Assembly: GCA_049644325.1 (NCBI GenBank)
Contig: JBARRR010000103.1
Coordinates: 1-62,625, forward strand
DNA: 62,625 nucleotides
DNA from: Candidatus Dormiibacterota bacterium
Lineage (GTDB): Bacteria; Chloroflexota; Dormibacteria; DASZGP01
Reading direction: 5' to 3'
Shown piece by piece: positions 9,879 to 54,955 of the stretch; within the stretch, counting starts at the first letter, position 1, and each line of letters begins with the position of its first letter. The translations under genes were made by a program, and so were the position numbers. Under the pieces are notes generated by a model that saw nothing but the letters and a program-made list of their open reading frames with translations, was not told where the DNA came from and made no database searches.

Positions 9879-9893
9879 GCCCCGATAGGGTGT

Positions 9894-10724: not shown

Positions 10725-10793
10725 GTGGCCCTCGTGTCAGCGATCTGGCGTGGGGACGATTGTATCGACGCCCCTCCTTATGATTGGCGGAAC

Positions 10794-12767: not shown

Positions 12768-13233
12768 CAAGCCGGAGATGACGATCGACGAGTCCAAGAC
12801 CTACCGGGTGACCGTGGACTCCAGCAAGGGCCCGTTCGTGATGGACCTGCAGCCCTCGCTGGCGCCGAAGACGGTCAACAACTTCGTCCACCTCGCCAAC
12901 CAGGGGTACTACGACGGGCTGACGTTCCATCGCTACGTGCCCGAGTTCGTCATCCAGGGGGGCGACCCCACCGGCACCGGCGGCGGCGGCCCCGGCTACA
13001 AGTTCGAGGACGAGCCGGTGAAGGCCAGCTACCGCGAGGGCGCCGTGGCAATGGCCAACTCCGGCCCCAACACCAACGGCAGCCAGTTCTTCATCACCAA
13101 CACCGACTGCCAGAACAAGCTGGCGCCGAGCTACAACCTCTTCGGCTTCGTGGTCCAGGGCCAGGACGTGGTCAACAGCCTGCGCCAGGGCGACGTGATG
13201 AACAAGGTCAGCGTCGAGGAGCGCGAGGGCTAA
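12760..13233 (+). CDS. Peptidylprolyl isomerase (cyclophilin type)
   Basis: [30 protein letters not shown] and [10 protein letters not shown]. Confidence 0.93.
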
Positions 13234-25530: not shown

Positions 25531-25663
25531 TGGACCTCCTCTCGGCCTCTGCCGTGACGTCCTCACGACCCACCTGGCAGCGCGGGCAATAGTAGGTCAC
25601 CCGGGCCAGCGTCCCCTGCCGCCGCGCTGTCACCGCCGCCCCGCAGCGCGGGCACGCGGTCAC
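25517..25663 (-). CDS. 48-aa C4 zinc-ribbon protein resembling the C-terminal zinc finger of Fpg/Nei glycosylases
   Basis: Below the track's length cut-off. My translation is VTACPRCGAAVTARRQGTLARVTYYCPRCQVGREDVTAEAERRSNARV. The GTG start overlaps the lhr TGA as GTGA, and the 3' end overlaps the DDN start by 14 nt. The pattern CPRCG-x16-YYCPRCQ matches the Fpg/Nei finger. Confidence 0.45.
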   Translation of the reverse strand: MTACPRCGAAVTARRQGTLARVTYYCPRCQVGREDVTAEAERRSNARV

Positions 25664-28600: not shown

Positions 28601-30204
28601 GGGATGGTGCCGCCGCTGACGACAGCCAGCCGCTGCGCCCCGGCGCGACCGCGCAGCTTGCCGGTGACCCGGTCCCAAACGATCCTGGGCCGCAGCTCGG
28701 CGAAGTCGTCGGATGGGTAGCGCCCAGCGAGCATGTCGAGTGTCGCTTCGAAGGCGCGGTCGGTCAGGTCGCTGAAGGGGTAGGCGCGGCGGACCAGCGC
28801 CTTGGCGTCGGCGTCCTGCCACTCGCCCATCGCCACCATCGCCACCAGCTGCTGGGCCAGCACGTCGAGCGGGTTGCGCGGCACCCTGGTCCGTTCAATC
28901 TCGCCTTCGAGCATTCGCTCGACCACCACCGCTGCCTGGAGCAGGTCGCCGCGGTGCTTGGGCATCACGACGCCCTTGGACGGCTCCCCCACCTGGTGGC
29001 CGGCCCGACCGATGCGCTGGATGCCGCTGGCGACGGTCGCCGGCGACTCGACCTGCACCACCAGGTCGACGGCCCCCATGTCGATGCCCAGCTCCAGCGA
29101 CGAGGTCGCCACCAATGCCGGCAGCCGTCCCGACTTGAGCGCCTCCTCCAGCTCCAGCCGCTGCTCCCTGGCGATCGACCCGTGGTGAGCGCGAACCAGC
29201 TCCACCGGTTCGCCAGGCGGGCCATCACCGTCCTCGACCGCCTGCGCGACTGCCTGTTCTTGGGCCAGCTCGTTGAGACGCGCCGCCAGCCGCTCGGCGA
29301 GCCGCCGCGAGTTGACGAAAATGATGGTGGACCTGTGAGCCCGGATCAGCTCCAGCAGCCGCGGGTGGATCGCGGGCCAGATGCTCCTCCGCGAAGGCGC
29401 CGGGGCGCCCGGGTCCAGCACTGTGGCGCCTGCGGGCCCCGAGGGCTGGTCGGCGCCACGCTCCAGGTTGCCCATGTCTTCGACCGGCACCTCGACCGTG
29501 ATCTCGAGCCGTTTGCGCTCCCCGGTGTCGATCAGCTCCACCTCGCGGCCGCTGCCGCCCAGGAATCGCCCCACCTCATCGAGCGGGCGCTGGGTGGCGG
29601 AGAGTCCGATCCGCCGCGGCTCGACCTTGGTCAAGTCGCCCAGCCGTTCCAGGCTCAGGGCCAGGTGTGCGCCACGCTTGGTGGCGGCCATGGAATGGAT
29701 CTCGTCGACGATGACGTAGCGGACCGTGGCCAGAACCTCCCGCGCCTGGCTGGTCAGCATCAGGAAGAGCGACTCGGGGGTGGTGATGAGGATGTCGGGC
29801 GGGTGGCGCTCGATGCGGCGGCGGTCGGCGGGCGAGGTGTCGCCGGTGCGGATCGCCGACGTGATCTCGGGGATGGGCGCGTCCATCCGCCGCGCCTCGA
29901 GCGCCATCCCCGCAAGCGGCGCCCGCAGGTTGCGCTCGATGTCGACCGCCAGCGCTTTGAGTGGCGAGATGTAGAGCACCCGGCAGCGCTCGCGCTCCGG
30001 TGGTGGTGGCTCCTGGGCCAGCCGGTCAAGGCAGTAGAAGAAGGCGGCCAGCGTCTTGCCGCTGCCGGTCGGCGCCGACATCAGGGTGTGCTTGCCGGCG
30101 GCGATAGCGCGCCAGCCCTGCTCCTGGACCAGGGTGGGCGCCTCGAAGGCGCCCGCGAACCAATGTCGCGAGACCGGCGAGAACAGGTCGAGCACGGTGG
30201 ACAT
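25660..30204 (-). CDS. lhr: Lhr-family ATP-dependent DNA helicase (long form with C-terminal domain)
   Basis: 1514 aa. Motif I APTGSGKTLAAF, motif II VDEIHS, TSSLELGID and QRIGRAGH. The length equals the long mycobacterial-type Lhr. Confidence 0.93.
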   Translation of the reverse strand: MSTVLDLFSPVSRHWFAGAFEAPTLVQEQGWRAIAAGKHTLMSAPTGSGKTLAAFFYCLDRLAQEPPPPERERCRVLYISPLKALAVDIERNLRAPLAGMALEARRMDAPIPEITSAIRTGDTSPADRRRIERHPPDILITTPESLFLMLTSQAREVLATVRYVIVDEIHSMAATKRGAHLALSLERLGDLTKVEPRRIGLSATQRPLDEVGRFLGGSGREVELIDTGERKRLEITVEVPVEDMGNLERGADQPSGPAGATVLDPGAPAPSRRSIWPAIHPRLLELIRAHRSTIIFVNSRRLAERLAARLNELAQEQAVAQAVEDGDGPPGEPVELVRAHHGSIAREQRLELEEALKSGRLPALVATSSLELGIDMGAVDLVVQVESPATVASGIQRIGRAGHQVGEPSKGVVMPKHRGDLLQAAVVVERMLEGEIERTRVPRNPLDVLAQQLVAMVAMGEWQDADAKALVRRAYPFSDLTDRAFEATLDMLAGRYPSDDFAELRPRIVWDRVTGKLRGRAGAQRLAVVSGGTIPDRGLYTVALYEGEPLPDRGTVPGFAMAGTAAPPGGRRPGRRIGELDEEMVYEMRVGQTFVLGASTWRVMDITPSQVLVTPAPGEPGTIAFWHGDTLGRPVEVGRALGQMTRELREASPEVAAARLHDRAGLDRLAIENLLGYLAEQAAASAVPDDKTVVVERFRDQLGDWRVCVLTPYGARVHAPWALAVAARMERELGLEVQSIYTDDGFALRVPEVDNPPDVDRLFLDPEDVREAVIDVVQGSALFASRFRENAARSLLLPRRRPNQRQPLWLQRQRAHDLLQVASRHPDFPIILETYRECLSDTFDMEALVDLMRAIRSREVRVVTVETERASPFASSLLFDFIAQYIYEAAAPLAESRAQALTLDRELLAELLGSAELRELLAPEVIEAVELELQGLVDDRWPRDRDEAADVLRRLGDLTEAEATARGIRPEWLRQLAQEHRAAAVRIAGEERWVAAEDAARYRDGLGVALPVGLPVALLGEWDEAFESLVLRYARTHTPFLAADPATRWALPKQQVSNVLSQLVAAGDLLSGEFRPGGAGREFCHPEVLIALRRRSLARLRREVEPVPVDVLARFLPQWQGIGVPARGLDRLAEVVHQLQAAAVPVSVMERDVLPARVADYSPQMLDHLISAGEVVWAGRGALGGTDGRVALYLRADAPRLLQPPLDLPEGAIADALREQLVSRGASFFADLMRATLEVDDGRDPEAVLDVLWEMVWAGEVTNDTFVPLRNRGPRRRGSRTRRPMMRLGPPGSEGRWSLVEHLTSLDISPTERLHATAGALLQRYGVLSRAEVLGEGSPGGFTAIYPVLRAMEEAGKIRRGYFVDGLGGSQFALPGAVDRLRGARHAARSDEGPRAIGLASTDPANPYGVTIPWPASPARTARVAGAYVVLEDGELRLYLERGGRSLLSFGEVTLEALAALATCAGRAGKVEVRTLNGDPIAGSNLEPLMREVGFGVSPRGLVLWPDRRTSVSA

Positions 30205-43045: not shown

Positions 43046-45121
43046 TTGCCTGAGCTAGCCGGGATCGAGTTCGTCCAGACCATCGGCCGCGGCGCGATGG
43101 GCGCGGTCTACCTGGCCCGGCAGACGGCCCTCAACCGGTACGTGGCCGCCAAGCAGATCCTGGGCGCCTGGAACGGCGACCCTGAGATGCTGGCCCGCTT
43201 CCAGCGGGAGGCGCGCGCCCTGGCGCAGATGAACCACCCCAACGTCGTTGGCATCTACGACCTGACGACCGCGGGCAACGACCTCTTCATGATCATGGAG
43301 TACGTCCGCGGCCCCTCGCTACGTCAGCTGATGGACAAGCAGCAGCTGACGGTCTCGCAGGCGCTGCGCACCCTGGGCGACATCTCGGCCGCGCTCGAAT
43401 ACGCCAGCAAGCTCGGCGTCGTTCACCGCGACCTCAAGCCCGGCAACGTCTTCGTCACCGTCGCCGGCAGCTCCAAGCTGGGCGACTTCGGCCTGGTCAA
43501 GATGGTGTCGGCGCAGTCGAACTTCCAGACCCAGGCCGGGACCATCCTTGGCACCCCCGCCTACATGTCGCCGGAGCAGGCCGAGGGCAAGGCCGACATC
43601 GACCAGCGCACGGACGTCTACTCGCTGGCGGTGATGGCATATGAGCTCCTCACCGGCAGGCTGCCGTTCCCCTCCATCCCCGGCAACATCATGGCCAGCC
43701 TCGACGCCCACATCTCGCAGCCGCCGCCGAAGCCAACAGACATCGTCCCGGGCTTCCCCAAGCGCGTCGAGGCGGCGCTGCTCGAGGGCCTGGCCAAGGA
43801 CCCGAAGAAGAGACCCGCCTCCGCGGGCCAGCTGTGGCAGAAGATACAATCCGCCGCCGCCAAGGATTGGCCGGGCTGGGAAAAGGACTCCGACCTGGCC
43901 GCCATGGCCTTGGCCGCGGCTCCCCCCGCCCCCCCGCCACTGCCGGCGCCAGGAACGCCCTCGGTGGCGCCCGCCGCCGCCGCGGAGACCGCCATGAGCC
44001 AGCCGCCAGGGGCGTACGGCGCTCCGACTGATCCGCCGCCGATGGCGCCACCGCCGCCGTCGACTGGCACATCGCCACCCCTCTCGTCGATCCCGGCGTC
44101 GATGCCCGTGATGGCTCCCCCGGCAGCGCCCCCTATGGCACCTCCCCCGGCCAGCACGGGGACACCGCCAACCCCGGGACCTGCGCCCGACGAAACGATG
44201 GTCAGACCCGCCGCCGCCGCCGACGAGACCATGGTGCGACCATCGCTCGCGGACGAGACCGCCGTGCAACCACCGCTGCCAGACGAGACCATGGTTCGGC
44301 CTCCGCTGGTGGACGAGACCGTGGTCCAACCACCGCTGCCAGACGAGACCATGGTTCGGCCTCCGCTGGCCGACGAAACCATGGTCCATCCGGTGCCCCC
44401 GGCCGGCGGCGCAAGCCTGGACGAAACCGTCGCCCTGCCCAATGCCCCCGCGGCACCCGGCGGTCCGGGGGCAACCCCGCCGCCCCCGGCACCGGGCGCT
44501 ACACCGTCAGCGCCGACCTTCGCCCCCCTGCCGCCGACGTCGACCCCTGCATCGATGGCGCCTCCGCTGGCGACAACCGCACCACCTGTCGCTCCCATGT
44601 CGGCGCCGCCGGCCGGCCCGGCCAGCGGCTCATGGGCTGCGCCCCAGGTGGAGACGCCGGTCTACAAGCCGCCGCCGACCAAGAGCCGCCGCCGCGGGGG
44701 TTTCGGCCGTTTCCTACTCATCCTGGTGCTGCTCCTGATCATCGTGGTTGCCGGCGCCGGGGCATTCCTGTTCCTCACCGGCGGCAACCTCTTCGGCCCT
44801 GGCACGCCGCTGTCCGTTTCGTCGGTGAACACCACCGTCAACCCAAGCTCGGGCAAGTGCCCCAGCTCCAAATACGTCTTCAGCGGCAAGGTCCACACCA
44901 ACGGCGCCGGCGGCGACATCACCTACCAGTGGGTCAAGCCGGACGGCACCGCCACAGATCCAGCGGTTGCGACCATCAAGAAGGGCGACACCGACGCGGT
45001 CGCCACCCTGGAGTTCACCTTCCAGGGCAACGGCAGCGCCGAGGGTGACGCTGTACTCCGCGTGCTCAAACCGACAAACTTGAGCTCGCAAGCCGCGCAC
45101 ATCACATACACCTGCCCCTGA
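43046..45121 (+). CDS. Hanks-type Ser/Thr protein kinase: cytoplasmic kinase, Pro-rich repeat linker, one TM, ~115-aa extracellular domain
   Basis: G-loop GRGAMGAVY, VAAK Lys, HRDLKPGN, DFG and GTPAYMSPE. TM segment FLLILVLLLIIVVAGAGAFLFL. The C-terminal domain has a Cys pair and is not PASTA-like. TTG start. Confidence 0.9.
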   Translation: MPELAGIEFVQTIGRGAMGAVYLARQTALNRYVAAKQILGAWNGDPEMLARFQREARALAQMNHPNVVGIYDLTTAGNDLFMIMEYVRGPSLRQLMDKQQLTVSQALRTLGDISAALEYASKLGVVHRDLKPGNVFVTVAGSSKLGDFGLVKMVSAQSNFQTQAGTILGTPAYMSPEQAEGKADIDQRTDVYSLAVMAYELLTGRLPFPSIPGNIMASLDAHISQPPPKPTDIVPGFPKRVEAALLEGLAKDPKKRPASAGQLWQKIQSAAAKDWPGWEKDSDLAAMALAAAPPAPPPLPAPGTPSVAPAAAAETAMSQPPGAYGAPTDPPPMAPPPPSTGTSPPLSSIPASMPVMAPPAAPPMAPPPASTGTPPTPGPAPDETMVRPAAAADETMVRPSLADETAVQPPLPDETMVRPPLVDETVVQPPLPDETMVRPPLADETMVHPVPPAGGASLDETVALPNAPAAPGGPGATPPPPAPGATPSAPTFAPLPPTSTPASMAPPLATTAPPVAPMSAPPAGPASGSWAAPQVETPVYKPPPTKSRRRGGFGRFLLILVLLLIIVVAGAGAFLFLTGGNLFGPGTPLSVSSVNTTVNPSSGKCPSSKYVFSGKVHTNGAGGDITYQWVKPDGTATDPAVATIKKGDTDAVATLEFTFQGNGSAEGDAVLRVLKPTNLSSQAAHITYTCP
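44189..44395 (+). repeat. Seven tandem ~10-aa coding repeats of the form x-DET(M/A/V)V(R/Q/H)P-PL inside the kinase linker
   Basis: DETMVRPAAAA DETMVRPSLA DETAVQPPLP DETMVRPPLV DETVVQPPLP DETMVRPPLA DETMVHP. At DNA level, AGACGAGACCATGGTTCGGCCTCCGCTGG occurs identically at 44281 and 44341, giving a 60-nt period. Confidence 0.85.
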
Positions 45122-45131
45122 GGAGGAGAAA

Positions 45132-46373
45132 ATGCCCGAAAGAGTCGTAGCCTACGCCGCCAGCCCCACCCGCCTGGTGCGCGTGGTGGGTGAGCAGAAC
45201 GCCCTGGGCAACCAGGTGATGGCCGCCTTCCTCAACCCCCACACCGCGCACGGCTTCCTCACGCGCAATCCGTACCCGGTTGTAGGCGACCCGCTTGACG
45301 GCTTCGAGGTTGCGCCGGCGGCCGGCCCGGTGGCGGAGCCGCTGGCGGCGCCTGGCTTCCCTGCCCCCGAGCAAACCGCGGTCTACGCTCCCGAGGTGGT
45401 GGCAGACGCGGCCGCGACCGACCCCGCGGCCCCGGTCGAGACCCCCGGGTTTGCGCCAGCGGCGGCGCCCGCCTTCACGCCCCCGCCCCCCTCGGCTGCC
45501 CCGCCGCCGATGATGCCGGTGGGCGCCGTCCAGGCGGTCACGCCCCGGGCGACCGGCGGACCGGGACAGGTGTTCGCGGTCTACAGTCCGCGTGGCGGAT
45601 CCGGCACCAGCCTGCTGGCGGCCACAATGGCGTCGCGGATTGCCCAGGACCCGGCGCTCCGCGTCCTCCTGGTCGACCTCGACCTCCAGAATGGCAGCCA
45701 GTCCTACTTCTTCGACGTAACCGAGCAGAAGCGCTGCAGCGTGCTCGGACTCAAGCCGCTGATCGACGAGATCCTGGTCAAGGTCGACGGTGACCTCACC
45801 CGGGTGGTGGCCGAGGCGCCCTCGGTGATCTCCGACGAGATCCTGATGGCCAAGACGTTCGACCGGGACAACCTGCACGTCCTGGTGGCCCTCGACGACC
45901 CGGCGGCGATCGACGACTACGTCGACCCCAGTTCCCACATGGAGGCGCTGATGTCGGTGCTGGGCAACAGCTTCGACGTTGTCGTGCTCGACCTGCCCAA
46001 CACCGTCGACCAGTTCACGGCCCCGGCGCTGTTCCGGTCCGACCGCATCGTTGTCGTCACCCCGGACGACATCCCCAGCCAGATCAAGGTGGCCCGCATG
46101 CTCAACCTGGTGCTGGCGCCGATGATCGAGGCCCGTGAGATGGCGCTCCAGGAGCGGTGCTTCCTGGTCGTCAACCGAAGCAGCAAGAAGAAGCTCGAGG
46201 TGCCGATGCCGATCGGGATCGCGGCCTCGCTGCCCGACGACAAGAAGTTCGTTGAGAGCTTCGCCGAGAAGCACCAGCCGTTCGCCAAGTCGAGCAGCTC
46301 CAACTACCCCAAGGCGGTGGCGCAGCTGGCCACCTTCCTGGGTGCGGGGCCGGCGGGCCAGGGCAAGAAGTAG
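45132..46373 (+). CDS. TadZ/CpaE-like ParA/MinD-family pilus-localisation protein with a degenerate Walker A
   Basis: The ATPase-fold half starts VFAVYSPRGGSGTSLLAATMA...LLVDLDLQNGS. Both Walker A lysines are missing (RGGSGTS in place of KGGxGKT). The N-terminal ~150 aa are Pro/Ala-rich. Strong RBS GAGGAGGAG, 10 nt after the kinase stop. Confidence 0.75.
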   Translation: MPERVVAYAASPTRLVRVVGEQNALGNQVMAAFLNPHTAHGFLTRNPYPVVGDPLDGFEVAPAAGPVAEPLAAPGFPAPEQTAVYAPEVVADAAATDPAAPVETPGFAPAAAPAFTPPPPSAAPPPMMPVGAVQAVTPRATGGPGQVFAVYSPRGGSGTSLLAATMASRIAQDPALRVLLVDLDLQNGSQSYFFDVTEQKRCSVLGLKPLIDEILVKVDGDLTRVVAEAPSVISDEILMAKTFDRDNLHVLVALDDPAAIDDYVDPSSHMEALMSVLGNSFDVVVLDLPNTVDQFTAPALFRSDRIVVVTPDDIPSQIKVARMLNLVLAPMIEAREMALQERCFLVVNRSSKKKLEVPMPIGIAASLPDDKKFVESFAEKHQPFAKSSSSNYPKAVAQLATFLGAGPAGQGKK

Positions 46374-46443
46374 CCGGGGTACCGACGGACGACGGCGTAT
46401 CCTAAGGGCCACCAACCGGCCCTGCAAGCGTGAGGAAGTACTG

Positions 46444-47766
46444 ATGGGAGTCAATCGATATATTCGCCGGCCCGGAGCCGAGGCGCCGGCCGCCGCGCCG
46501 GCGAAGCCGCGTGCGGCCGCCGCCCCGCGTGACCTGACCCCAATCAAGGCCGAGATCCGCCGCCGTGTCCTCGACGAGCAGCTCGCCGATCCCCAGTTCG
46601 CCGAGCTGGTCAAGACCAAGCCGGAGCGAGCCAAGCGGGAGCTCTCGGAAGTTGTCATGCGCCTGATGGACGAGTACGCCCTGGGCGTCGAGGATCGCAA
46701 GACCGTCGTAGGCTACATCACCGACAACATCTTCGGCTTCGGCCCACTCGAGGACCTGCTCCGCGACGAGACGATCACCGAGATCATCGTCAGCGGGCCC
46801 AAGCGGGTGTTCATCGAGCAGAAGGGCAAGCTCCGCCCCACCAACATCGTCTTCGAGGACAACTCCCACCTCGACCAGATCGTGCAGGTCATCCTGCGAC
46901 CCCTGAACCGGCCGGCCAACGAGTCCAACCCATTGGTCAACGGCCGCCTGCCTGACGGCAGCCGCGTCAACGTGGTCATGCCGCCGCTGGCCATCGACGG
47001 GATCTCGGTCAATATCCGAAAGTTCAGCAAGGACAAGCTGGGCGTCACCCAGCTGGTGGAGATGGGCGCCCTGACCCAGGACCTCGCCGACTGGTGCAGC
47101 CGCGCCGTCGAGGGTCGCATGAACGTGCTGGTCTCGGGCGGCACCGGCTCCGGGAAGACGACGCTCTTGAACATCCTCTCCAGCTTCATCCCCGACGACC
47201 AGCACGTGATCACGATCGAGGACGCCGCCGAGCTGCAGCTGCGCCACCCGTTCATCAAGCGGCTTGAGGCGCGGCCGGCCAACCTTTCGGGCCAGGGGGA
47301 GGTCAGCATCCGCGACCTGGTCAAGAACGCGCTGCGCATGCGGCCCGACCGGATCGTCGTCGGCGAGTGTCGAGGCGAGGAGGCCTTCGACATGATGACG
47401 GCGATGAACACCGGCCACGACGGCTCCCTCTCGACCATCCACGCCAACAGCCCCTATGACACCATCAGCCGCCTGGAGACAATGGTGCTGATGGCGAAGG
47501 AGCTGCCGATACCCGCCATCCGCAAGCAGATCGCCAGCGCCATCAACCTGATCGTGCAGACATCGCGCCTCAGCGACGGCACACGCAAGGTCATCGAGGT
47601 GGCCGAGATCACAGGCATCGACGACCGTGGGGAGGTCATGCTGGACACCATCTTCCAGTTCAAGCGCACGGGCCAGAACGCCGAGGGGAAGTTCGTTGGA
47701 GAGTTCACCCGGGTCAAGGACCCGGCGGACTGCGAGGAGAAGATTCGACTGGAACTGGGGCACTGA
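46444..47766 (+). CDS. CpaF/TadA-family type IV pilus (Tad) secretion ATPase
   Basis: Walker A VSGGTGSGKTTLLN, Asp box ITIEDAAEL, Walker B RIVVGECRGEEA and His box GHDGSLSTIHAN. I trimmed the start to the ATG at 46444. Confidence 0.92.
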   Translation: MGVNRYIRRPGAEAPAAAPAKPRAAAAPRDLTPIKAEIRRRVLDEQLADPQFAELVKTKPERAKRELSEVVMRLMDEYALGVEDRKTVVGYITDNIFGFGPLEDLLRDETITEIIVSGPKRVFIEQKGKLRPTNIVFEDNSHLDQIVQVILRPLNRPANESNPLVNGRLPDGSRVNVVMPPLAIDGISVNIRKFSKDKLGVTQLVEMGALTQDLADWCSRAVEGRMNVLVSGGTGSGKTTLLNILSSFIPDDQHVITIEDAAELQLRHPFIKRLEARPANLSGQGEVSIRDLVKNALRMRPDRIVVGECRGEEAFDMMTAMNTGHDGSLSTIHANSPYDTISRLETMVLMAKELPIPAIRKQIASAINLIVQTSRLSDGTRKVIEVAEITGIDDRGEVMLDTIFQFKRTGQNAEGKFVGEFTRVKDPADCEEKIRLELGH

Positions 47767-47902
47767 CAGGGTAAGAGTCCAACCGCCTTCGGGCGATATA
47801 TCATGGGCGCCGATCGCCAGCCTGCAAGCGCAAATAAGGGGATAAACGCCAGATGGTAGATGTACGCGGCAGCGCACCGCGACCAGATGGGAGGCTCGAG
47901 AC

Positions 47903-48850
47903 ATGTTGTTGATCATCGGCATGGTGCTGGCGGCGATCGGGTTGATCTACCTGGTCCTCAGCGCGGTGCTTCCCATCATGCAGTCGTCGCGAACCGACCC
48001 GTACACCGCCTACACCGGCGCCGGCCAGGCCGCGGGCGCGGCTCAGCCGGCGGAGTACGTCAGTCCCACCGAGGCCATCCTCGGCGTGGTTTGGCGGGGC
48101 ATGGGCGACAGCAAGTTCAAACGCCGCGTGGCCGTGGGGCCGACGTTCCACTGGGGGACGCTGCTGGACCGGATGCTGGCCGGCGCCCTGCTCGGCGGCG
48201 GGGTGGGGCTGATCATCTTCGCGCAGCCCCTGATCGCGGCGATCGCCCTCGTCGCGGTGCCGGTCATCCTCTACTTCCTGGCAAGTCGCCGGGCCAAGGC
48301 CTACGAGCAGAAGTTCCTGATCCAGCTGCCCAACGCACTTTTGCTGATCTCCAGCGCAATGGCCGCTGGCCGCAACTTCGTCAACGCCCTGGAGGCCACA
48401 ACCCCCAACCTCGCGGATCCAATCAGGAGCGAGCTGATCACCCTCGGCAACCGCATCTCGTCGCTGAGGGTGACCGAGGCCCAGGCCTTCGAGATGTGGG
48501 CGGAGCGGCTACCCTACCCCGAGCTTCACACCATCAGCTCGGCGCTGGCGATCGGCAACCAGGTCGGTCTTGAGACCTTCATGCTCCTGCGCAGCCTGAG
48601 CAGCTCGATCCAGGACGAAATCCGGGGACGCAATGAGCTCGAGGCGCTGACCAGCCAGGTGAAGTCGACCGCCACGGTGGTCTCTTACCTGCCCCTGATC
48701 TTTGTCCTGCTGATCTACCTTATAACCCCCAAGTTTGTGACCCCGCTCTTCACGACGGTGGTGGGCATTATCGTCATCATCATCGCGGTGGGGATGAACT
48801 ACGCCAGCCGGCTTTGGACGCGCCGCATCCTCAAGAGGATTGAGGCATGA
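47903..48850 (+). CDS. TadB-like type II secretion system F-family inner-membrane platform protein
   Basis: T2SS-F domain pattern (LPNALLLISSAMAAGRNFVNALE...) flanked by TM segments. Confidence 0.8.
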   Translation: MLLIIGMVLAAIGLIYLVLSAVLPIMQSSRTDPYTAYTGAGQAAGAAQPAEYVSPTEAILGVVWRGMGDSKFKRRVAVGPTFHWGTLLDRMLAGALLGGGVGLIIFAQPLIAAIALVAVPVILYFLASRRAKAYEQKFLIQLPNALLLISSAMAAGRNFVNALEATTPNLADPIRSELITLGNRISSLRVTEAQAFEMWAERLPYPELHTISSALAIGNQVGLETFMLLRSLSSSIQDEIRGRNELEALTSQVKSTATVVSYLPLIFVLLIYLITPKFVTPLFTTVVGIIVIIIAVGMNYASRLWTRRILKRIEA

Positions 48851-49731
48851 GCGACATCCTGCTGCTGGTCGCCGTCGTCGTCGGGCTGGTCATCGTGGTG
48901 GTGGCGATCCTCGTGATCGGACGGCGCCGCTCGAGGAGTTCGTACAAGGCCGAGGCGGAACTGGTCGACCCCGACAAGAAGGCGGTCCTGCGGCTCAAGG
49001 CACAGGCCAAGAACCTGCCCGCGATTCCGCTCTTTGTCCAGGTCGTCAACCGCAGCGATATCCCCAGGCAGCTGGAGCAGGCGGACGTCGCCCACGAGGT
49101 CACGGTCGAGGATGTCGCCCGCATGAAGCTGCTTCTGATGCTGCTGTTTGGCGTCGCCGGCGCCGTCCTGGGCGGCCTGCTCTTCAACCCCCTGCTGATC
49201 GTCATCTTCGCGGTCACCGGGGCCGTGGTCGGCTTCCTCGGCCCCGACTCGACGATCAAGCAGGCGGCCACCTTGCGCCAGAACAAGCTGAGCCGTGCGC
49301 TTCCGCTCGCGCTCGAGGTCATCGGCCTGGCGGTGGAGCGCACCTCGATCGATGCCGGCATCGCCTACTACTGCCAGTTCTTCTCCGGCGAGGTCCTGGC
49401 CCAGGAGCTGGGGTACGCCAACCAGCGCGTGGTCCAGCTCAAGGAGCGACTGGACGTCGCCATGAGCGAGCTGCTGCGCAAGAACCGCAACGACGACCTC
49501 TCGTTCCTGGTGGCCGCCGTGGGCCAGGCCACCCAGGTCGGCGGCCGCGACCTCAAGGCGATGCTGCAGGGCCAGTCGACCGAGCTGCGCATCAAGCGGG
49601 AGCAGGAGGTCAAGGCGCGTTCACTGCGGGCGCCAGTGCTCATGACCTTCCCGACGATGCTCAACATGATGGCGCTGCTGGTGATCCTCGGCAGCCTGGC
49701 ATTCCTCCAGATCGGCGCCTCAAGCAGGTAG
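48847..49731 (+). CDS. TadC-like type II secretion system F-family platform protein
   Basis: T2SS-F domain (LPLALEVIGLAVERTSIDAGI...) with N- and C-terminal TM segments. 4-nt overlap with tadB. Confidence 0.8.
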   Translation: MSDILLLVAVVVGLVIVVVAILVIGRRRSRSSYKAEAELVDPDKKAVLRLKAQAKNLPAIPLFVQVVNRSDIPRQLEQADVAHEVTVEDVARMKLLLMLLFGVAGAVLGGLLFNPLLIVIFAVTGAVVGFLGPDSTIKQAATLRQNKLSRALPLALEVIGLAVERTSIDAGIAYYCQFFSGEVLAQELGYANQRVVQLKERLDVAMSELLRKNRNDDLSFLVAAVGQATQVGGRDLKAMLQGQSTELRIKREQEVKARSLRAPVLMTFPTMLNMMALLVILGSLAFLQIGASSR

Positions 49732-49738
49732 AACGGGG

Positions 49739-49996
49739 ATGCGGCACCGGCGACGCGTTATGGGATCGTCGATGGCCCAGCGTGGTCAAGCGATGATGGA
49801 GTATTCGCTGATCTCGCTGACCGTAGTGCTGGGGTTCGCCGTCGCCTACTATGCCGGCCTCACCGACGTCTGGACCCGCACCCTCAACGACTCGGTCAAC
49901 AGCTACTACATCACCGTGCCCATCGACTGCACCGACGGGGTCACGCCGTGCGTCCAGCACCTGACTGACATCAACTTCCAGTACCAGCATCGATGA
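49739..49996 (+). CDS. Flp/Fap-type prepilin; long mature part with a Cys pair
   Basis: Flp processing motif G/xxxxEY is present: QRG|QAMMEYSLISLTVVLGF. The start is uncertain (ATGs at 49739, 49760 and 49772). ATGA overlap with the next gene. Confidence 0.6.
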   Translation: MRHRRRVMGSSMAQRGQAMMEYSLISLTVVLGFAVAYYAGLTDVWTRTLNDSVNSYYITVPIDCTDGVTPCVQHLTDINFQYQHR

Positions 49997-50526
49997 GGCG
50001 TCGCCAGCCCAACCAATCGTCTGGACAAGCGATGGTGGAATTCGCCCTGGTCCTTCCGCTGCTCCTGGTCATCATCTTCATCTGCATCGGCACCGCGTTT
50101 CTCTACGCTCTGCGGATCGCCGAACACAAAGCCGCGTACGACGCCGCCCGGTACGTCGCCAAGGTGACGAACGCCAAACTGGATGCGGGCGACATTACCG
50201 GCAAGGCCACCGACACGTACCCCACAGCCCAGGGCGCGGCCCAGGACGTGGTCGATTTCGACTACCAGGGCTCTGGGCCCAACCGCGGTTCCGCGGTGAT
50301 GAAGGCGTTCGGCACCCATCCCCAGGTCACCTCGGTCAAGACCGGGCCTGATGCCGGGGGCCCCGCCGGCTACCACACCGTCGAGTCCGTCGAGGTGACC
50401 ATCACCTACAAGATCCAGAACATACCCGGCTGGGACTACCTTGCCGCCATCTACGGCAGCAGCAGCGTAAACGGCAAGGACCTCACCGAGCAGGGCGTGG
50501 CCGCCCGCGTGGTCAACCAGTACTGA
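49993..50526 (+). CDS. TadE-like pseudopilin / pilus assembly protein
   Basis: TadE N-terminal motif SGQAMVEFALVLPLLLVIIF. Confidence 0.75.
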   Translation: MRRRQPNQSSGQAMVEFALVLPLLLVIIFICIGTAFLYALRIAEHKAAYDAARYVAKVTNAKLDAGDITGKATDTYPTAQGAAQDVVDFDYQGSGPNRGSAVMKAFGTHPQVTSVKTGPDAGGPAGYHTVESVEVTITYKIQNIPGWDYLAAIYGSSSVNGKDLTEQGVAARVVNQY

Positions 50527-52652
50527 TGAGCATCAGGGCCCAGGAGGGCAACGTCACGCTGATCACGGCTCTGACCGCGGGCCTGATGCTGCTCGTGATC
50601 CTGCTCGCCACCGGGATCGCGCAGAACTCCGGGGGCTCGACGCGGATGCAGGCCTCCAGCGATGGCGCTGCGCTGACGGCGGCGTCCGGCTACATCATGG
50701 CGCTCAACGACGACACCCTCTTGGACACGATCCAGTGGGCGGTCGACGCCGTGGGCCACCTCGGCAACGCGCTCGAGATCGCCGGCGCGGCGATCATCGC
50801 CGCGGCGACCGCGGCAGAGGCGTTCAGCTTAGGTTTAGCCTCGGCTGCGGTTGCCATCCTGATCGCGTTTGGAACGACGCTTATCAGCGCCGGGTCCACC
50901 TTAATCAGCATCGGGCAGACGATGTCGAATGTGGTGGACAACTTTGTCACCGTTGCCAAACAGGTGGTGGACATCGCCAAATACGTCTTGGCCATCGCCA
51001 ACTCCACCATCATCGCCAGCAACAACGGCTACCTGGGCTTCATGCTGCCTGCCGCACTGAATGCGGCGGGCGCGTTGAAGTACGACAAGACAGATGCTGA
51101 CAAGATCGTCCGCCACGCCAAGGAGATCACCAGCGACACCGGCACGCCGGCCAGCGACGGTCAGGGCCTATACATCAAGGCCAGCCTCAAGGAGACGCTC
51201 CGGCGGGCGGCCCTGCGCGACCTCTGGACGGGCGGCAAGCAGGGGCAGCAGCGCGGCCACAACACCTTCCAGATCTGGAACTCGCCAACCCCCGGGTGTA
51301 ACCCCGATACCTGGGATACGGTCGGAGCCGACCCCACCAACGTGCAGTTCGACTCCCACGGCGTTCTGCAGCCGGCCAAGGCCATCAAACGGGACTGCAG
51401 CAGCGAGTTCAAGTACCTGGTACAGCTCCTCAACCGTGCCTTCAACGCCCAGATCGCCGACCTCAAAGGGCTGCGGGCCAAGATCAACCTGCCCAACGTT
51501 TTCGACGACAGCCAGGGGTCACTTCAGGACGCCAACTCGGAGATCGACAGCACGATCAGTGACCTACAGAAAATCGTGGGCGGGGCTCCCCAGGGGCCAT
51601 CCCAGGTTGGGATCGGGGCCAATGGACCCCAGAGCGACCTCTTCCCCTCGGTGCCGTCCGGACTGAGCAACCAGGACTGGGCCAACTACGTCTACTCCTA
51701 CTACCACAGCACCGGAAGAGGCCAGGCATGCAAGGGCGCATCAGCGGCAACTTACACGGGCGCCAACGTCCCATTCACGCCCTACGGCGACGGCAGCAAC
51801 GACAAGAACCAGACCTTCTTCGGCTGCCTGACCGCCGAGTCGCAGAACAACCCCGCCAACCCGGGCAGCATCCCGGGCGCGCACAGCCTGGGCGTCACAA
51901 CCACCCAGAACAACCAGAGCAGCACCACCAACTACTGGTGGACCGGGACGCAGAACCGCGACGTGCAGTCGTCGGACGTGGGGTCGCCTCCGGGTCCGGC
52001 AGGGACCCCGTGCTGCTGGGACTTTCGCACCACCGACGACTACGCCAAGAACAAGAGGTTCGTCGGCGACACCGACGGGATGCTCAACTACGTCAAGGAG
52101 GTGCTGCGCTACGGCCACACCACCAAGGGGGGCGAGGCCAGCAACCCGATCACCTTCCTTGCCTTTCAGAAGCTCGATCCGACCTATATGCAGGAGACCA
52201 CGGCGCGGCTGTCTGGGCAGTCGAAGCCACCAAGCCAATACTCAGTGGCCGCCACCATGGTTGACGTCAAGATTGCCGCGGACGACAACGACCGCATCAG
52301 CTTCGCCCAGTTCTGCGGCAAGATCTTCGACGGGGACCCCAACGACGACAGCCTGCTCGGCTTCCTGCCCAACAACGGGGCCGCGTGGTGCACCGCGTTT
52401 GCCAACTTGCTCATCGGCGCCGCCAGCGCCATCAACAGCGCACCCCAGCCGATCAAGGCCCTCCTCGACGCCATCTTCGGGACGCCGCCACCGACCCAGG
52501 TGTACCACGCCGAGATGCACGTGCCCGCCGCGACCACCGAGATCTGCCAGGCACTCAACGTGATCAAAGAAATCCAGCAGGGCACCAGCTCGGTCGACGC
52601 CGTCTGGAAGGAGGTCACCAACCCGCCGCAATCGGTGGCGACCTCTTGCTGA
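50526..52652 (+). CDS. TadG-like N-terminal domain protein with a large unassigned C-terminal region
   Basis: The N-terminus EGNVTLITALTAGLMLLVILLATGIAQNSGGSTRMQASSDGAALTAA fits the Tad/TadG-like N-terminal pattern. Residues ~80-180 are Ala/Ile/Ser-rich and hydrophobic. The remaining ~530 aa are Asn/Gln/Thr/Ser-rich with no motif I recognise. Confidence 0.6.
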   Translation: MSIRAQEGNVTLITALTAGLMLLVILLATGIAQNSGGSTRMQASSDGAALTAASGYIMALNDDTLLDTIQWAVDAVGHLGNALEIAGAAIIAAATAAEAFSLGLASAAVAILIAFGTTLISAGSTLISIGQTMSNVVDNFVTVAKQVVDIAKYVLAIANSTIIASNNGYLGFMLPAALNAAGALKYDKTDADKIVRHAKEITSDTGTPASDGQGLYIKASLKETLRRAALRDLWTGGKQGQQRGHNTFQIWNSPTPGCNPDTWDTVGADPTNVQFDSHGVLQPAKAIKRDCSSEFKYLVQLLNRAFNAQIADLKGLRAKINLPNVFDDSQGSLQDANSEIDSTISDLQKIVGGAPQGPSQVGIGANGPQSDLFPSVPSGLSNQDWANYVYSYYHSTGRGQACKGASAATYTGANVPFTPYGDGSNDKNQTFFGCLTAESQNNPANPGSIPGAHSLGVTTTQNNQSSTTNYWWTGTQNRDVQSSDVGSPPGPAGTPCCWDFRTTDDYAKNKRFVGDTDGMLNYVKEVLRYGHTTKGGEASNPITFLAFQKLDPTYMQETTARLSGQSKPPSQYSVAATMVDVKIAADDNDRISFAQFCGKIFDGDPNDDSLLGFLPNNGAAWCTAFANLLIGAASAINSAPQPIKALLDAIFGTPPPTQVYHAEMHVPAATTEICQALNVIKEIQQGTSSVDAVWKEVTNPPQSVATSC

Positions 52653-53269
52653 TGTACGGCATCCGCCGACGAGCCGGACCGCGGCAACGAGCGCAGGCGA
52701 TGATCGAATTCGCCATCGCGATTCCAGTCCTGGCTCTGCTCCTGATCGGGTCCATCGTGCTCGGAAAGCTGGCCTACCAGGCCGTCATCGTCGGCGAGGC
52801 GGTCGACGAGGCCAGCAAGATCGCGATGGTGGATCGCCTCAGCCCCAGCGGCGGTGGCTCGTTGCAGATGAGCAACGACGACCTCCTCAAGTGGATCCGC
52901 GCCGCCGCCAAGGAAGGTGACCCCACCATGGATTCAGAGTCCATCTGCCCGGATGGGGACTGGAAGTTCCGTCACTCGCCGAGTGACATCTTCTCCGCGA
53001 TCGGCAGCGGCGGCAATTTCTTCGATAACTTCAACAGCCAGAGCAACGCCGTCCCGGGCGGGAACAAGAATGGCGACACCACCATCGACGGAATCGAGCG
53101 CTGGCTCAACCCGGGGCTGCAAACGATGCGGGTTAAATTCAACTTCAAGAGCGGCATCAACGACGCCGTGCTCACTGTCCGCCTCGCCCAGCACGCCACC
53201 AGCTACCAGATGTTCACCGTGCCGTTCAACGGCCCATCCGGCGGCTCGGTAAGCGGCAGCGGCTGCTGA
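52652..53269 (+). CDS. TadE-like pseudopilin / pilus assembly protein (second copy)
   Basis: RAQAMIEFAIAIPVLALLLIGSIVLG. I trimmed the start to the ATG at 52652, a TGATG overlap with the preceding gene. Confidence 0.7.
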   Translation: MYGIRRRAGPRQRAQAMIEFAIAIPVLALLLIGSIVLGKLAYQAVIVGEAVDEASKIAMVDRLSPSGGGSLQMSNDDLLKWIRAAAKEGDPTMDSESICPDGDWKFRHSPSDIFSAIGSGGNFFDNFNSQSNAVPGGNKNGDTTIDGIERWLNPGLQTMRVKFNFKSGINDAVLTVRLAQHATSYQMFTVPFNGPSGGSVSGSGC

Positions 53270-53305
53270 CTCCCGATTGCCCGGGCTCGAGGTCTAGGTC
53301 GAACT

Positions 53306-53824
53306 GTGGCTAGGGCGGCAACGGCGAAGCGACGCCGCGTGGCGCCGGCCGGCAAGAGGCGTCGAAGGCGGGGCCCCCTTGCCGGGCTCTTGGTGGTGGG
53401 GGTGCTTGGCGCCCTGATCGCGATTGGTTACTACTTCTACTCCCGGCCAGCACCGCAGCTGCAAGAGTCGGACCTGGGCAGCATCCAGCAGGCGCTGAGC
53501 CAGGTGCCCGCGCAGGATATTGCAGCACCCGAACTGGGTCTGCCACGACCACCTGGATCGACGCGCTCCTACTTCCACCAGAACGGCAAGGTGATCACGA
53601 CCATTTATGCCAGCCACTCCGGCTTCGAGGAGATCCGTAGCCGGCTCCAGGAACAGCTCCCGGCGTCGGGCTGGCAGAGCCTGGGCAGGTCCGGAACGGC
53701 GCCGGTCCAGGCCGCCCAGAGTTGGTCAGGCGTATTCGGGCAGACAGGGAAGATCCTCCAGGTCTCGGTGATCTCGACCAGCGGCGCGACGTCAACCATC
53801 TATATCCTCGAGAACAGTTCGTAG
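53306..53824 (+). CDS. Membrane-anchored hypothetical protein (Arg-rich N-terminus, one TM, ~120-aa external domain)
   Basis: KRRRVAPAGKRRRRRGP, then LAGLLVVGVLGALIAIGYYF. No family recognised. Co-directional within the Tad locus. Confidence 0.5.
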   Translation: MARAATAKRRRVAPAGKRRRRRGPLAGLLVVGVLGALIAIGYYFYSRPAPQLQESDLGSIQQALSQVPAQDIAAPELGLPRPPGSTRSYFHQNGKVITTIYASHSGFEEIRSRLQEQLPASGWQSLGRSGTAPVQAAQSWSGVFGQTGKILQVSVISTSGATSTIYILENSS

Positions 53825-53911
53825 ATGGTGACTCCCGGCGAACCACTGTGAGATGCTCTGCTCCGCCACAGGGCCACAGCTTGGCGAGCCAACCCACTAG
53901 GAGACTGCTGA

Positions 53912-54955
53912 ATGGCTAACGGACCCGCCTTCAAGTACGGAGACCAGGTCTTCCCGCTCAACAAGGTGACCAACACGATCGGCCGCAAGGACCGGATCAC
54001 CAACATGGTGCCGGACGTCGACCTGGCGACCGTCGACGACGAGCGCGCGGTGTCCCGCAAACACGCAGAGGCCACCTACCAGTCGGGCAAGATCCTGCTG
54101 CGTGATGTCGGCTCGACCAACGGCACCACCATCAATGGCCAGGCGCTCCAGCTCCAAGTCGAAGGCGAGCTGGCGGACGGCGACCAGGTCTCGCTCGGCG
54201 GCTTTGAGGTCGTCTACGCAGCGTCGGCGGAATGGCCTGCCGGCGTGGAGGCGCAGTGGCCGGCGGAGCAGCCGGTGGACCTCGAGACCCAGGTGTACCA
54301 CCCCGAGGAGACAGCCGTGATGCGGCCCGACGAGACCGCGGTGTTCGCGCAAGGCGCCCTGGATCAGCCGGCGGAAGCAGCCCCCGCGGAGAGCGAGCTG
54401 GCCGGGGCAGCGGATGTCTACACGCCCGCGCCGGAGGCTGAGGCGCCCGCCGAAGAGGGTGCCGCCGAGCCCACGCCCGCGGCCGAGGCCGAACCCGAGG
54501 CTGCTGCAGCCGAGGCAGCGCCGGCGGTCGAGGAGGCAGCACCGGTGGCGAAGACGCCGGCGGTCGAGGCGGCCCCCGCGCCCGAAGAGGCCCCGGTGGC
54601 CGCGGCGTCGGCAGAGGAGTCGATCACCTTCGTCCCCTGCACCAACCACCCGCACCTGCCAGCGGTCGGGCTCTGCCCTGGCTGCCTCGACCCCTTCTGC
54701 ATCGATTGCCTGCCCGAGCGCCCGGAGCAGCCGCTGGCGTGCAACCGCTGCGCCGGGATCCTGATGCGACTGGCGGCGGCCACAGGAGGGACGCCGTGGG
54801 CGGCCGTGGCGGCGGCGCCGGTGGCGACTGCGCCAGAGGCCGCCGGCTTCCCACCCCCGTCCGCGGGCGTGGCGCGCAACTACAACCCGGAGCCCCCGGC
54901 GCAGCCGACGACCCCGGCGCCCCCGGAGGAGAAAAAGAAGAAGTGGCCCTTCTGA
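53912..54955 (+). CDS. FHA domain protein with an Ala/Glu/Pro-rich linker and a B-box-like Cys/His zinc module
   Basis: FHA core TIGRKDRI...VSRKHAEATYQSGKILLRDVGSTNGTTING. C-terminal CTNHPHLPAVGLCPGCLDPFCIDCLPERPEQPLACNRC, i.e. C-x2-H-x7-C-x2-C-x4-C-x2-C-x10-C-x2-C. Confidence 0.85.
   Translation: MANGPAFKYGDQVFPLNKVTNTIGRKDRITNMVPDVDLATVDDERAVSRKHAEATYQSGKILLRDVGSTNGTTINGQALQLQVEGELADGDQVSLGGFEVVYAASAEWPAGVEAQWPAEQPVDLETQVYHPEETAVMRPDETAVFAQGALDQPAEAAPAESELAGAADVYTPAPEAEAPAEEGAAEPTPAAEAEPEAAAAEAAPAVEEAAPVAKTPAVEAAPAPEEAPVAAASAEESITFVPCTNHPHLPAVGLCPGCLDPFCIDCLPERPEQPLACNRCAGILMRLAAATGGTPWAAVAAAPVATAPEAAGFPPPSAGVARNYNPEPPAQPTTPAPPEEKKKKWPF

Follow-up and report, generated by a model that had tools for sequence, protein, structure and literature searches.

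The window analysed here is a 62.6-kb stretch of Candidatus Dormibacterota DNA (G+C ~68%), and the region at positions 43046-54955 within it is a secretin-less Tad/Flp (type IVc) pilus operon. The operon opens with the gene of a membrane Hanks-type Ser/Thr kinase, here termed STPK1, and closes with the gene of a protein that carries an FHA domain and a C-terminal Cys/His finger. Both genes are genuine, conserved parts of the Tad locus in this lineage, and their products have a threonine motif in common. We lean towards the view that they form a locus-embedded phospho-threonine (pThr) module, which would control the Tad machine at the level of its assembly or of its expression.

Open reading frame (ORF) calls, translations and profile searches gave eleven co-directional genes on the plus strand, in the order STPK1, TadZ/CpaE, CpaF/TadA, TadB-like, TadC-like, Flp-type prepilin, TadE, a TadG-like protein of 708 amino acids (aa), a second TadE, a membrane-anchored protein of 172 aa and the FHA protein. 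The initial annotation of this DNA had counted twelve genes, and two of its start positions are corrected here (cpaF truly begins at 46444 and the second tadE at 52652). The order that it gave for the Tad genes between kinase and FHA gene was confirmed. Its identities are borne out by profile searches for TadZ, CpaF and both TadE proteins, and for TadB, TadC, the prepilin and the TadG-like protein by sub-threshold profile matches, a conserved processing motif or position and synteny. It had also described very short gaps and overlaps throughout. The intergenic distances are, in order, 10, 70, 136, -4, 7, -4, -1, -1, 36 and 87 nucleotides (nt), which fits most junctions but not three of them (70, 136 and 87 nt). 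Likewise as first described, none of the eleven products matched a secretin, TadD or a prepilin peptidase. Families of the secretin RcpA/CpaC, of RcpC/CpaB and of TadD had zero matches in the eleven products, in the other window ORFs scanned and in the neighbours of related loci. An A24 prepilin peptidase (TadV/CpaA) was absent from the locus, from the scanned ORFs of the window and from the 10-kb flanks in relatives, and is presumably encoded elsewhere in the genome. The missing secretin and the phylogeny point to a monoderm envelope.

Kinase and FHA genes as conserved parts of the Tad locus

Searches that started from CpaF and from homologues of the FHA protein and of TadZ, together with a scan of metagenomes, recovered 14 Dormibacteria-type loci. 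The CpaF of the window is 98% identical to that of a Candidatus Dormibacterota metagenome-assembled genome (MAG) and 82-89% identical to those of four further Dormibacteria or 'Chloroflexota' MAGs; the next relatives, from Chloroflexota and other groups, reach at most 57% identity. A kinase gene lies immediately upstream of tadZ in all 12 loci that have this flank; likewise, all 12 loci that have the other flank show an FHA gene downstream of the Tad genes. This linkage holds over CpaF identities of 73-98% and with differing outer neighbours, which are sulfate genes, an acetyltransferase, Cpn60 or divergent kinases on the 5' side, and a pyridoxal-phosphate (PLP) decarboxylase, a cellulase, a short-chain dehydrogenase (SDR) with enolase, or a lipoprotein on the 3' side. 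The initial annotation had named neighbourhood conservation as the test of its proposal, and the two genes do stay with the Tad genes in relatives, a paralogous and a rearranged locus included. Its further claim that monoderm Tad loci are not framed in this way also stands. Local hidden Markov models (HMMs) and tblastn detected a kinase or FHA domain in none of 95 Tad/CpaE loci from outside Dormibacteria, namely 16 Tad loci of other lineages retrieved through CpaF and 79 metagenome CpaE/TadZ loci (560 kb). Two of the protein families involved are themselves confined to Dormibacteria, the FHA/finger family with 33 homologues and the TadZ subfamily with 37 proteins, and in both the scores fall sharply beyond.

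The related loci (labelled L) differ in several respects around this common frame. Most of them have a second kinase gene between tadZ and cpaF (~570-605 aa, with its own membrane span and ectodomain), which is absent from the window, L001 and L030; comparison of window positions 46373-46444 with L029 (11253-13104) shows it as a clean 1.85-kb indel. Some relatives have a third kinase upstream, and the threonine motif is missing from these extra kinases. The pilin genes of L032 are relocated on the opposite strand, and the series kinase-TadZ-CpaF-TadB-TadC-FHA-kinase is unbroken. Since kinase and FHA gene were kept by the motor genes after this move, the signalling genes go with the motor module. 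The paralogous Tad-like locus, L028 (6857-16922), is ~12 kb from L027 on the same 818-kb contig and on the opposite strand, and reads kinase-kinase-TadZ (481 aa)-TadB-TadC-three large TadE/TadG-like proteins-short FHA/finger protein. One of its TadE-like proteins has a PA14-like stretch. It has no Flp gene and no CpaF of its own, and for want of the latter it may use the neighbouring locus's ATPase.

Another candidate, L026 from a close relative, was considered as a counter-example and rejected. Its positions 9312-9992 correspond to window positions 54022-54773 and hold an FHA-gene remnant that lacks the first ~37 codons and is frameshifted in the finger. The genes downstream in the window (PLP decarboxylase, AMP-binding enzyme, SDR and ADC-like) are kept there, PAS/GGDEF/EAL fragments replace the Tad locus, the synteny break falls inside the FHA gene, and the contig has many split genes. 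Either the Tad locus was lost and the FHA gene then decayed, or the contig is misassembled.

The linkage might also be one of descent alone, the kinase and FHA genes having another task, for instance in the control of the cell envelope or of division. Every positive locus belongs to a single class-level lineage, and shared ancestry therefore inflates the linkage count. The L026 remnant lies beside the same downstream genes without Tad genes, but this copy is truncated at its 5' end and frameshifted, as would be consistent with decay after Tad loss or with misassembly. Kinases with the same ectodomain also exist away from Tad genes. The gene of one such paralogue, P0083 (L113, 635-2179), adjoins PAP2 phosphatase and diacylglycerol kinase genes and not Tad genes; this kinase, however, has lost its catalytic motifs (HGD and DLG stand for HRD and DFG, and the activation segment is shortened) and has zero threonine motifs. 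Furthermore, the linkage survives changes of both outer flanks, the paralogous duplication, the second-kinase indel and the relocation of the pilin module. A neighbourhood without function is very unlikely.

A threonine motif common to STPK1 and the FHA protein

In an alignment with PknB, all motifs of an active kinase are present in STPK1 (GRGAMG14, K36, HRD127, DFG147 and SPE175), and its activation-loop threonines align with those of PknB. The catalytic motifs are unchanged across 7 orthologues (alignment A5). We propose that STPK1, a PknB-like protein that spans the membrane once, is catalytically active. Orthologues are 53-81% identical to the window kinase and share its linker, membrane span and ectodomain; a homology search started from the kinase tail returned 3 homologues, its candidates being flooded by low-complexity words. 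The ectodomain gave weak Foldseek matches to PKD, CARDB and Ig-like domains (E ~0.01) and a Pfam PKD match of 0.07. It had been put forward in the initial annotation as the sensor. A small extracytoplasmic domain does exist, but AlphaFold2 (AF2; a model of moderate confidence), Foldseek and Pfam describe it as a generic Ig/PKD-like sandwich without identifiable ligand.

The motif can be written as [DE]-E-T-[AMVL]-[VIM], and the window was scanned in all six frames for [DE]ET[AMVL][VI]. This gave nine matches, seven in the STPK1 linker and two in the FHA-protein linker, and nowhere else. An eighth linker repeat of STPK1, degenerate (DETVA), begins at aa 459, just outside 44189..44395. In 13 related loci, all 60 matches fell in the linkers of STPK1, the FHA protein or TadZ; control loci (275 kb) gave 3 matches. 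The STPK1 linkers of relatives have 1-7 copies at the same position (3-7 in all but L033), and the FHA-protein linkers have 1-3 copies in the 13 related loci and 1-5 across the family. Alignments of STPK1 and of the FHA protein show the motif columns as the sole conserved columns of otherwise variable linkers. The motif is found in 31 of the 33 FHA-family proteins; the two without it are short (198 and 202 aa), and one carries the annotation of a partial sequence. When kinase representatives of 1.8 billion proteins were ranked by score, two or more motif copies were limited, within the top 150, to the two of STPK1 type. The motif can be likened to the acceptor pattern reported for Mycobacterium tuberculosis Ser/Thr kinases, with an acidic residue before the threonine, V at +2 and P/R at +4.

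The pThr-binding residues of the FHA domain are invariant among 23 aligned homologues (H51 nearly so), and in sequence the domain is nearest, among solved relatives, to the pThr-binding GarA, OdhI and FhaA. Pfam also scores the protein with Yop-YscD_cpl (4.3e-7), a match that would suit a phospho-independent scaffold subunit of the cytoplasmic Tad platform, as in EssC and YscD, with the kinase regulating something else. Indeed, the FHA domains of EssC (type VIIb secretion) and YscD (type III secretion) work without phospho-threonine. Such domains, however, lack the pThr-binding residues that are invariant in this family, an orthologous kinase is adjacent in every locus, and kinase and FHA protein share the threonine motif; a role of this kind appears improbable. 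At the other end of the protein, the C-terminal [DE]-x-KKKKWPF is kept in most family members and missing from three shorter ones, and this tail could serve for membrane binding or docking.

In the pThr module that we favour, an outside cue would cause STPK1 to autophosphorylate threonines of its seven-copy linker array, and the FHA domain encoded by the last gene would dock on them. STPK1 may also phosphorylate the motif on the FHA protein. Because two motif copies directly follow its FHA domain, this protein would be both substrate and reader, and once phosphorylated it might inhibit itself, as GarA and OdhI do, or form head-to-tail multivalent assemblies, as with Rv1747. In the window's subclade, the single motif copy in the TadZ linker is a possible further target. 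The Cys/His finger and the KKKKWPF tail would form the output side and contact the TadZ-CpaF-TadB/C platform, and in sum the recruitment or activity of the pilus motor would be gated from outside. Control of this kind would be post-translational and might work in the activating or the inhibiting direction. A more specific version, offered tentatively, is a lineage-specific phospho-code, [DE]-E-pT-Phi-Phi, in which the operon kinase would write on itself (at up to seven sites), on the FHA/zinc-finger adaptor and on some TadZ proteins; the single FHA domain would read the marks, and the resulting multivalent membrane scaffold would recruit or release the TadZ-CpaF motor. The initial annotation had suggested that Ser/Thr phosphorylation switches pilus assembly. 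The conserved kinase/FHA linkage, the intact residues and the shared motif agree with phosphorylation as the switch, but the sequence is compatible with control of expression as well as of assembly.

Several observations weigh against the pThr module. The organisms are uncultured and the proposal rests on sequence. No locus has a linked PP2C: a PP2C/SpoIIE phosphatase was not found in the scanned window genes or in the 10-kb flanks of relatives. Position pT+3 of the motif is variable, whereas canonical FHA specificity depends on it, and the short FHA proteins of L028 and L032 lack the strict motif. The finger scores below threshold (ANCHR-like_BBOX 0.0016, zf-B_box 0.064), and its top Foldseek matches, B-box, PHD and RING, have E ~1; this affects both the assignment of the finger and that of its partner. 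Divergent FHA domains in the control loci could have escaped the local FHA HMM. Finally, the strict motif occurs in only 5 of 37 TadZ homologues, those of the window's subclade and the paralogous TadZ. It reads EETAV or EETAM in the closest relatives, the paralogous TadZ P0073 has three EETMV copies, and the window copy is a near-motif, EQTAV. Because of this count, TadZ was downgraded as a general phospho-target. The earlier proposal that the FHA protein or the TadZ N-terminus is the target or adaptor is therefore retained for the FHA protein as the general partner, but for TadZ it is limited to one clade.

The main rival to the pThr module acting on the motor is expression control of the kind known from the Sulfolobus Arn network, in which the kinase would phosphorylate the FHA/zinc-finger protein and thereby repress or activate expression of the pilin or the operon, through DNA, RNA or a regulator. 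This is again a point against control at the motor, as ArnA, which combines a zinc finger with an FHA domain and is a Hanks-kinase substrate, represses the archaellum, a related type IV filament, at the expression level in the only case studied of a protein of this kind, and when its zinc finger is deleted the repression is lifted. The FHA protein of the window is soluble, its finger is invariant in the family alignment, and an AT-richer gap of 136 nt precedes tadB, all of which would suit such a role. However, the finger is C-terminal and B-box-like, B-boxes mostly bind protein, and no DNA-binding family matched the FHA protein in profile searches. The seven-fold motif array on a membrane kinase better fits a membrane docking scaffold, and in L032 it is the motor genes, not the relocated pilin genes, that the kinase and FHA genes accompany. 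We regard expression control as unlikely, and the phospho-independent scaffold and descent-only linkage as less likely still.

Motor, pilin and other features of the window

The coordinates of the locus features are collected in Table 1. At its N-terminus TadZ has a short conserved segment in place of a full receiver-like domain; a Pro/Ala-rich linker follows, and then an ATPase-fold domain whose P-loop reads SPRGGSGTS. This P-loop has no Walker lysine, and TadZ had for this locus been called degenerate. We do not follow this description: throughout the subfamily the P-loop is unchanged and without the lysine, which is also missing in distant CpaE homologues and in the closest ParA of the PDB, 3EA0, so that its absence is a family trait and decay is ruled out. 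CpaF has the T2SSE domain alone and thus does not belong to class III, which has an N-terminal FHA domain; its score on TIGR03819 (TadA family) falls under the strict equivalog cut-off. TadB and TadC score below the Pfam gathering score for T2SSF; both are multi-pass, in the expected position and kept in relatives. The gap of 136 nt between cpaF and tadB (47767-47902) is comparatively AT-rich and present in the window's subclade, and the two genes abut in more distant relatives. It could hold an internal promoter; Rfam gave no match in it. For the locus as a whole, promoter and terminator scans and an Rfam search gave nothing informative.

Table 1. Positions in the window of the genes, domains and motifs of the Tad locus
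Feature	Position	Strand	Support
STPK1, membrane Hanks-type Ser/Thr kinase, 691 aa, TTG start	43046..45121	+	Pkinase E 1.7e-46; best PDB match PknB, 1.4e-47
Catalytic kinase domain, aa 8-263	43067..43834	+	Pkinase profile, PknB alignment, orthologue alignment
Seven D-E-T-[MAV]-V-x-P repeats, aa 382-450, in Pro/Ala-rich cytoplasmic linker	44189..44395	+	Motif scan; 30/60-nt tandem repeat at DNA level
Single transmembrane helix of STPK1, aa 553-577	44702..44776	+	Sequence; kept in orthologue alignment
Extracytoplasmic domain of STPK1, aa 586-691, predicted seven-strand beta sandwich, conserved Cys pair C605/C690	44801..45118	+	AF2 pLDDT 70
TadZ/CpaE-like ParA/MinD protein, 413 aa	45132..46373	+	AAA_31 1.5e-9; CpaE_hom_Actino 5e-12; homologues named CpaE by their sources
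Near-motif E-Q-T-A-V-Y-A-P in TadZ linker	45369..45392	+	Motif scan and alignment
CpaF/TadA secretion ATPase, 440 aa, without fused FHA	46444..47766	+	T2SSE 6.6e-59; TIGR03819 2e-90
TadB-like platform protein, 315 aa	47903..48850	+	T2SSF 0.0011 (sub-threshold); 5 hydrophobic segments; conserved synteny
TadC-like platform protein, 294 aa	48847..49731	+	T2SSF 8.4e-5 (sub-threshold); multi-pass; synteny
Flp-type prepilin, 85 aa, predicted cleavage after G16 (G/QAMMEY)	49739..49996	+	Motif kept in 8 orthologues
TadE-like pseudopilin, 177 aa	49993..50526	+	TadE 1.2e-10, above cut-off
TadG-like large protein, 708 aa	50526..52652	+	N-terminal 'Tad' PF13400 0.002 (sub-threshold)
Second TadE-like pseudopilin, 205 aa	52652..53269	+	TadE 1.1e-6, above cut-off
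Single-pass membrane protein, 172 aa, conserved, without family	53306..53824	+	Orthologues in all relatives
FHA protein with C-terminal Cys/His finger, 347 aa	53912..54955	+	FHA 1.9e-13
FHA domain, aa 22-96	53975..54199	+	G24-R25, S48-R49 and N70-G71 invariant; H51 nearly invariant
Two motif copies, EETAVMRP and DETAVFAQ, directly after FHA domain	54305..54352	+	Motif scan
Cys/His zinc-finger-like module, B-box-like; C243, H246, H248, C255, C258, C263, C277 and C280 invariant	54638..54751	+	Alignment A3; AF2 pLDDT 78
Conserved C-terminal tail KKKKWPF	54932..54952	+	Alignment A3

The processing site of the prepilin, RG/QAMMEY, reads G/QAM[LMI]EY across the orthologues; a Pfam search of the prepilin, with the Flp_Fap model included, gave no match. 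The TadG-like protein evolves fast (22-32% identity between relatives); it has no PDB relative, and its Pfam match to PF13400 is sub-threshold. The 172-aa protein matched no family or PDB entry, and its orthologues have a conserved PRPxGxxRS box. Compared with L029, L003, L004 and L027, the pilin/tip module as a whole (flp, tadE, TadG-like, tadE2 and the 172-aa gene; 49739-53824) is too diverged for blastn, with 22-49% protein identity, whereas the motor module of the same genome pair is ~80-84% identical at the DNA level. Diversifying selection or module exchange acting on exposed parts would explain this divergence. A gene for a lipoprotein of ~258 aa lies between the 172-aa gene and the FHA gene in L002 (10364-11140), L005 (8802-9581), L030 (18547-19317) and L003 (17183-18091), and is absent from the window; its product weakly resembles SCO4651-family lipoproteins (4e-11, under the cut-off).

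The rapid evolution of the pilin, TadG and tip module relative to the motor bears on what the machine does, which might be DNA uptake, Kil-like contact killing or protein secretion by a Tad-derived apparatus that a phospho-signal triggers to fire on contact. The Myxococcus Kil system is Tad-like, rich in FHA proteins and assembled on prey contact, and the paralogous L028 has its PA14-like domain on a TadE-like protein. We consider such a function improbable: the Flp prepilin is standard, the minor pilins are of TadE/TadG type, and no toxin, immunity, nuclease or ComEA/ComEC-type genes were found in the locus by profile searches. As it concerns the output, it would be compatible with regulation by the pThr module.

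Outside the locus, its 5' neighbour in the window is a sulfate-assimilation cluster whose last gene encodes a tetrapyrrole methylase, and its 3' neighbour is the convergent gene of the PLP decarboxylase. No second kinase or FHA gene is present elsewhere in the 62.6-kb window. A subtilase (Peptidase_S8) of 1390 aa with FG-GAP/beta-propeller-like repeats (13230-17402, minus strand) is probably a large secreted or surface protease. An alpha/beta-hydrolase is fused to an adenylate/guanylate cyclase domain (22351-23679, minus strand); a related locus has an FHA-cyclase fusion just 5' of its Tad-locus kinases (L003 333-1445, minus strand). A large Lhr-type helicase of 1514 aa has all four Lhr winged-helix domains (25660-30204, minus strand). 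Two proteins encoded on the plus strand have no Pfam match, one of 614 aa with ~10 membrane spans (10332-12176) and one of 332 aa (7748-8746).

Comparison with known systems

Tad pili serve in adhesion, biofilm formation, surface sensing and predation, and how they are switched on is known for few proteobacteria, where two-component systems, cyclic di-GMP and polarity factors are involved. For Dormibacterota, which are widespread soil bacteria represented by metagenomes only, the locus suggests that a regulated surface appendage is among their conserved traits. In the open-access literature, we found no description of a Tad locus with an embedded Hanks kinase, nor of Dormibacterota pili. Monoderm-type Tad loci read tadZ-tadA-tadB-tadC-flp-tadE-tadF, for example in Bifidobacterium breve, Micrococcus luteus and M. 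tuberculosis (Rv3654c-3660c). The present locus has the same core genes in the same order, with putative tadB and tadC genes in the places expected, a Flp prepilin with G/XXXXEY, no secretin and an unlinked prepilin peptidase. Unlike these loci, it has a Hanks kinase gene 10 nt before tadZ (two to three kinases in relatives) and an FHA/zinc-finger gene at the 3' end, its TadZ lacks the full receiver-like N-domain, and it includes a large TadG-like gene and the conserved 172-aa membrane protein.

FHA domains have been associated with Tad motors before, in class III CpaF proteins with an N-terminal FHA domain (mostly from betaproteobacteria), in Myxococcus Kil, which has the FHA-ATPase KilF and several FHA proteins, and in FHA genes near the tad genes of Bdellovibrio. 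Phospho-signalling has been suggested for these systems, but no kinase is part of their loci, and neither kinase nor target is known for them. Those systems are diderm and secretin-bearing, and FHA occurs in them as part of the ATPase or dispersed; here it is on a separate protein and the kinase is in the operon. A single operon thus encodes both writer and reader and offers a candidate acceptor motif defined to the residue. This puts the hypothesis within reach of tests on three recombinant proteins and a handful of peptides, although the organism is uncultured.

Closer regulatory parallels come from secretion machines. In type VI secretion systems (T6SS), the PpkA-Fha1-PppA pathway of Pseudomonas aeruginosa and the PpkA-TssL-Fha pathway of Agrobacterium switch assembly post-translationally through pThr-FHA binding. 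Both there and in the present operon, the genes of an FHA protein and of a membrane Hanks kinase with an outer domain form part of an envelope-machine locus. The differences are that the machine here is a Tad apparatus, that PP2C is not linked, that the motif is repeated on kinase and FHA protein, and that a Cys/His finger replaces the TagH-type C-terminal region (NCBIfam TagH 55.9 bits against a 120-bit cut-off). Variants c-e of the type VII secretion system (T7SS) have loci with a predicted Ser/Thr kinase, phosphatase and FHA domains, some of them adjoining Tad genes. They resemble the present case as monoderm envelope machines whose locus encodes a membrane kinase and a pThr-competent FHA domain; here, however, EssC/EccC and WXG100 are absent and the kinase/FHA module belongs to the Tad operon itself.

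The layout of the FHA protein, with an FHA domain and candidate acceptor threonines in a disordered segment of one polypeptide, is shared with the mycobacterial-type FHA switches GarA, OdhI and Rv1747. The FHA domain of GarA and OdhI binds the protein's own phosphorylated ETTS tail. Rv1747, whose partner kinase is PknF, combines linker pThr sites and FHA domains in the same protein. Motif sequence and copy number differ here, and the partner would be a pilus machine, unlike the metabolic enzymes and the ABC transporter of those systems.

The Sulfolobus Arn network comprises ArnA (zinc finger and FHA), ArnB (vWA), the kinases ArnC and ArnD, and PP2A, and acts on archaellum expression. By analogy, the Hanks kinase and the FHA/finger protein found here may control a type IV filament, the ATPase and platform of the archaellum being homologous to CpaF and TadB/C; an Arn substrate also has repeated E-T-type phospho-sites (IET*T*). 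In contrast to Arn, the present system is bacterial, its FHA domain is N-terminal, its finger is B-box-like and not of the RanBP2 type of ArnA, and no vWA (ArnB-type) family matched in the profile searches of the locus; the Arn kinase genes, moreover, lie outside the filament operon, and Arn acts on expression. If the phospho-code reading were true, no Tad pilus would have had its circuit of kinase, substrate and reader defined before, and the Arn logic would have a counterpart in bacteria that acts on a homologous filament. Taken together, the locus is a new variant on an established kinase/FHA regulatory theme and not a new kind of system; it extends the pairing of membrane Hanks kinase and FHA protein from T6SS and T7SS to bacterial type IV filaments, in parallel with archaeal Arn.

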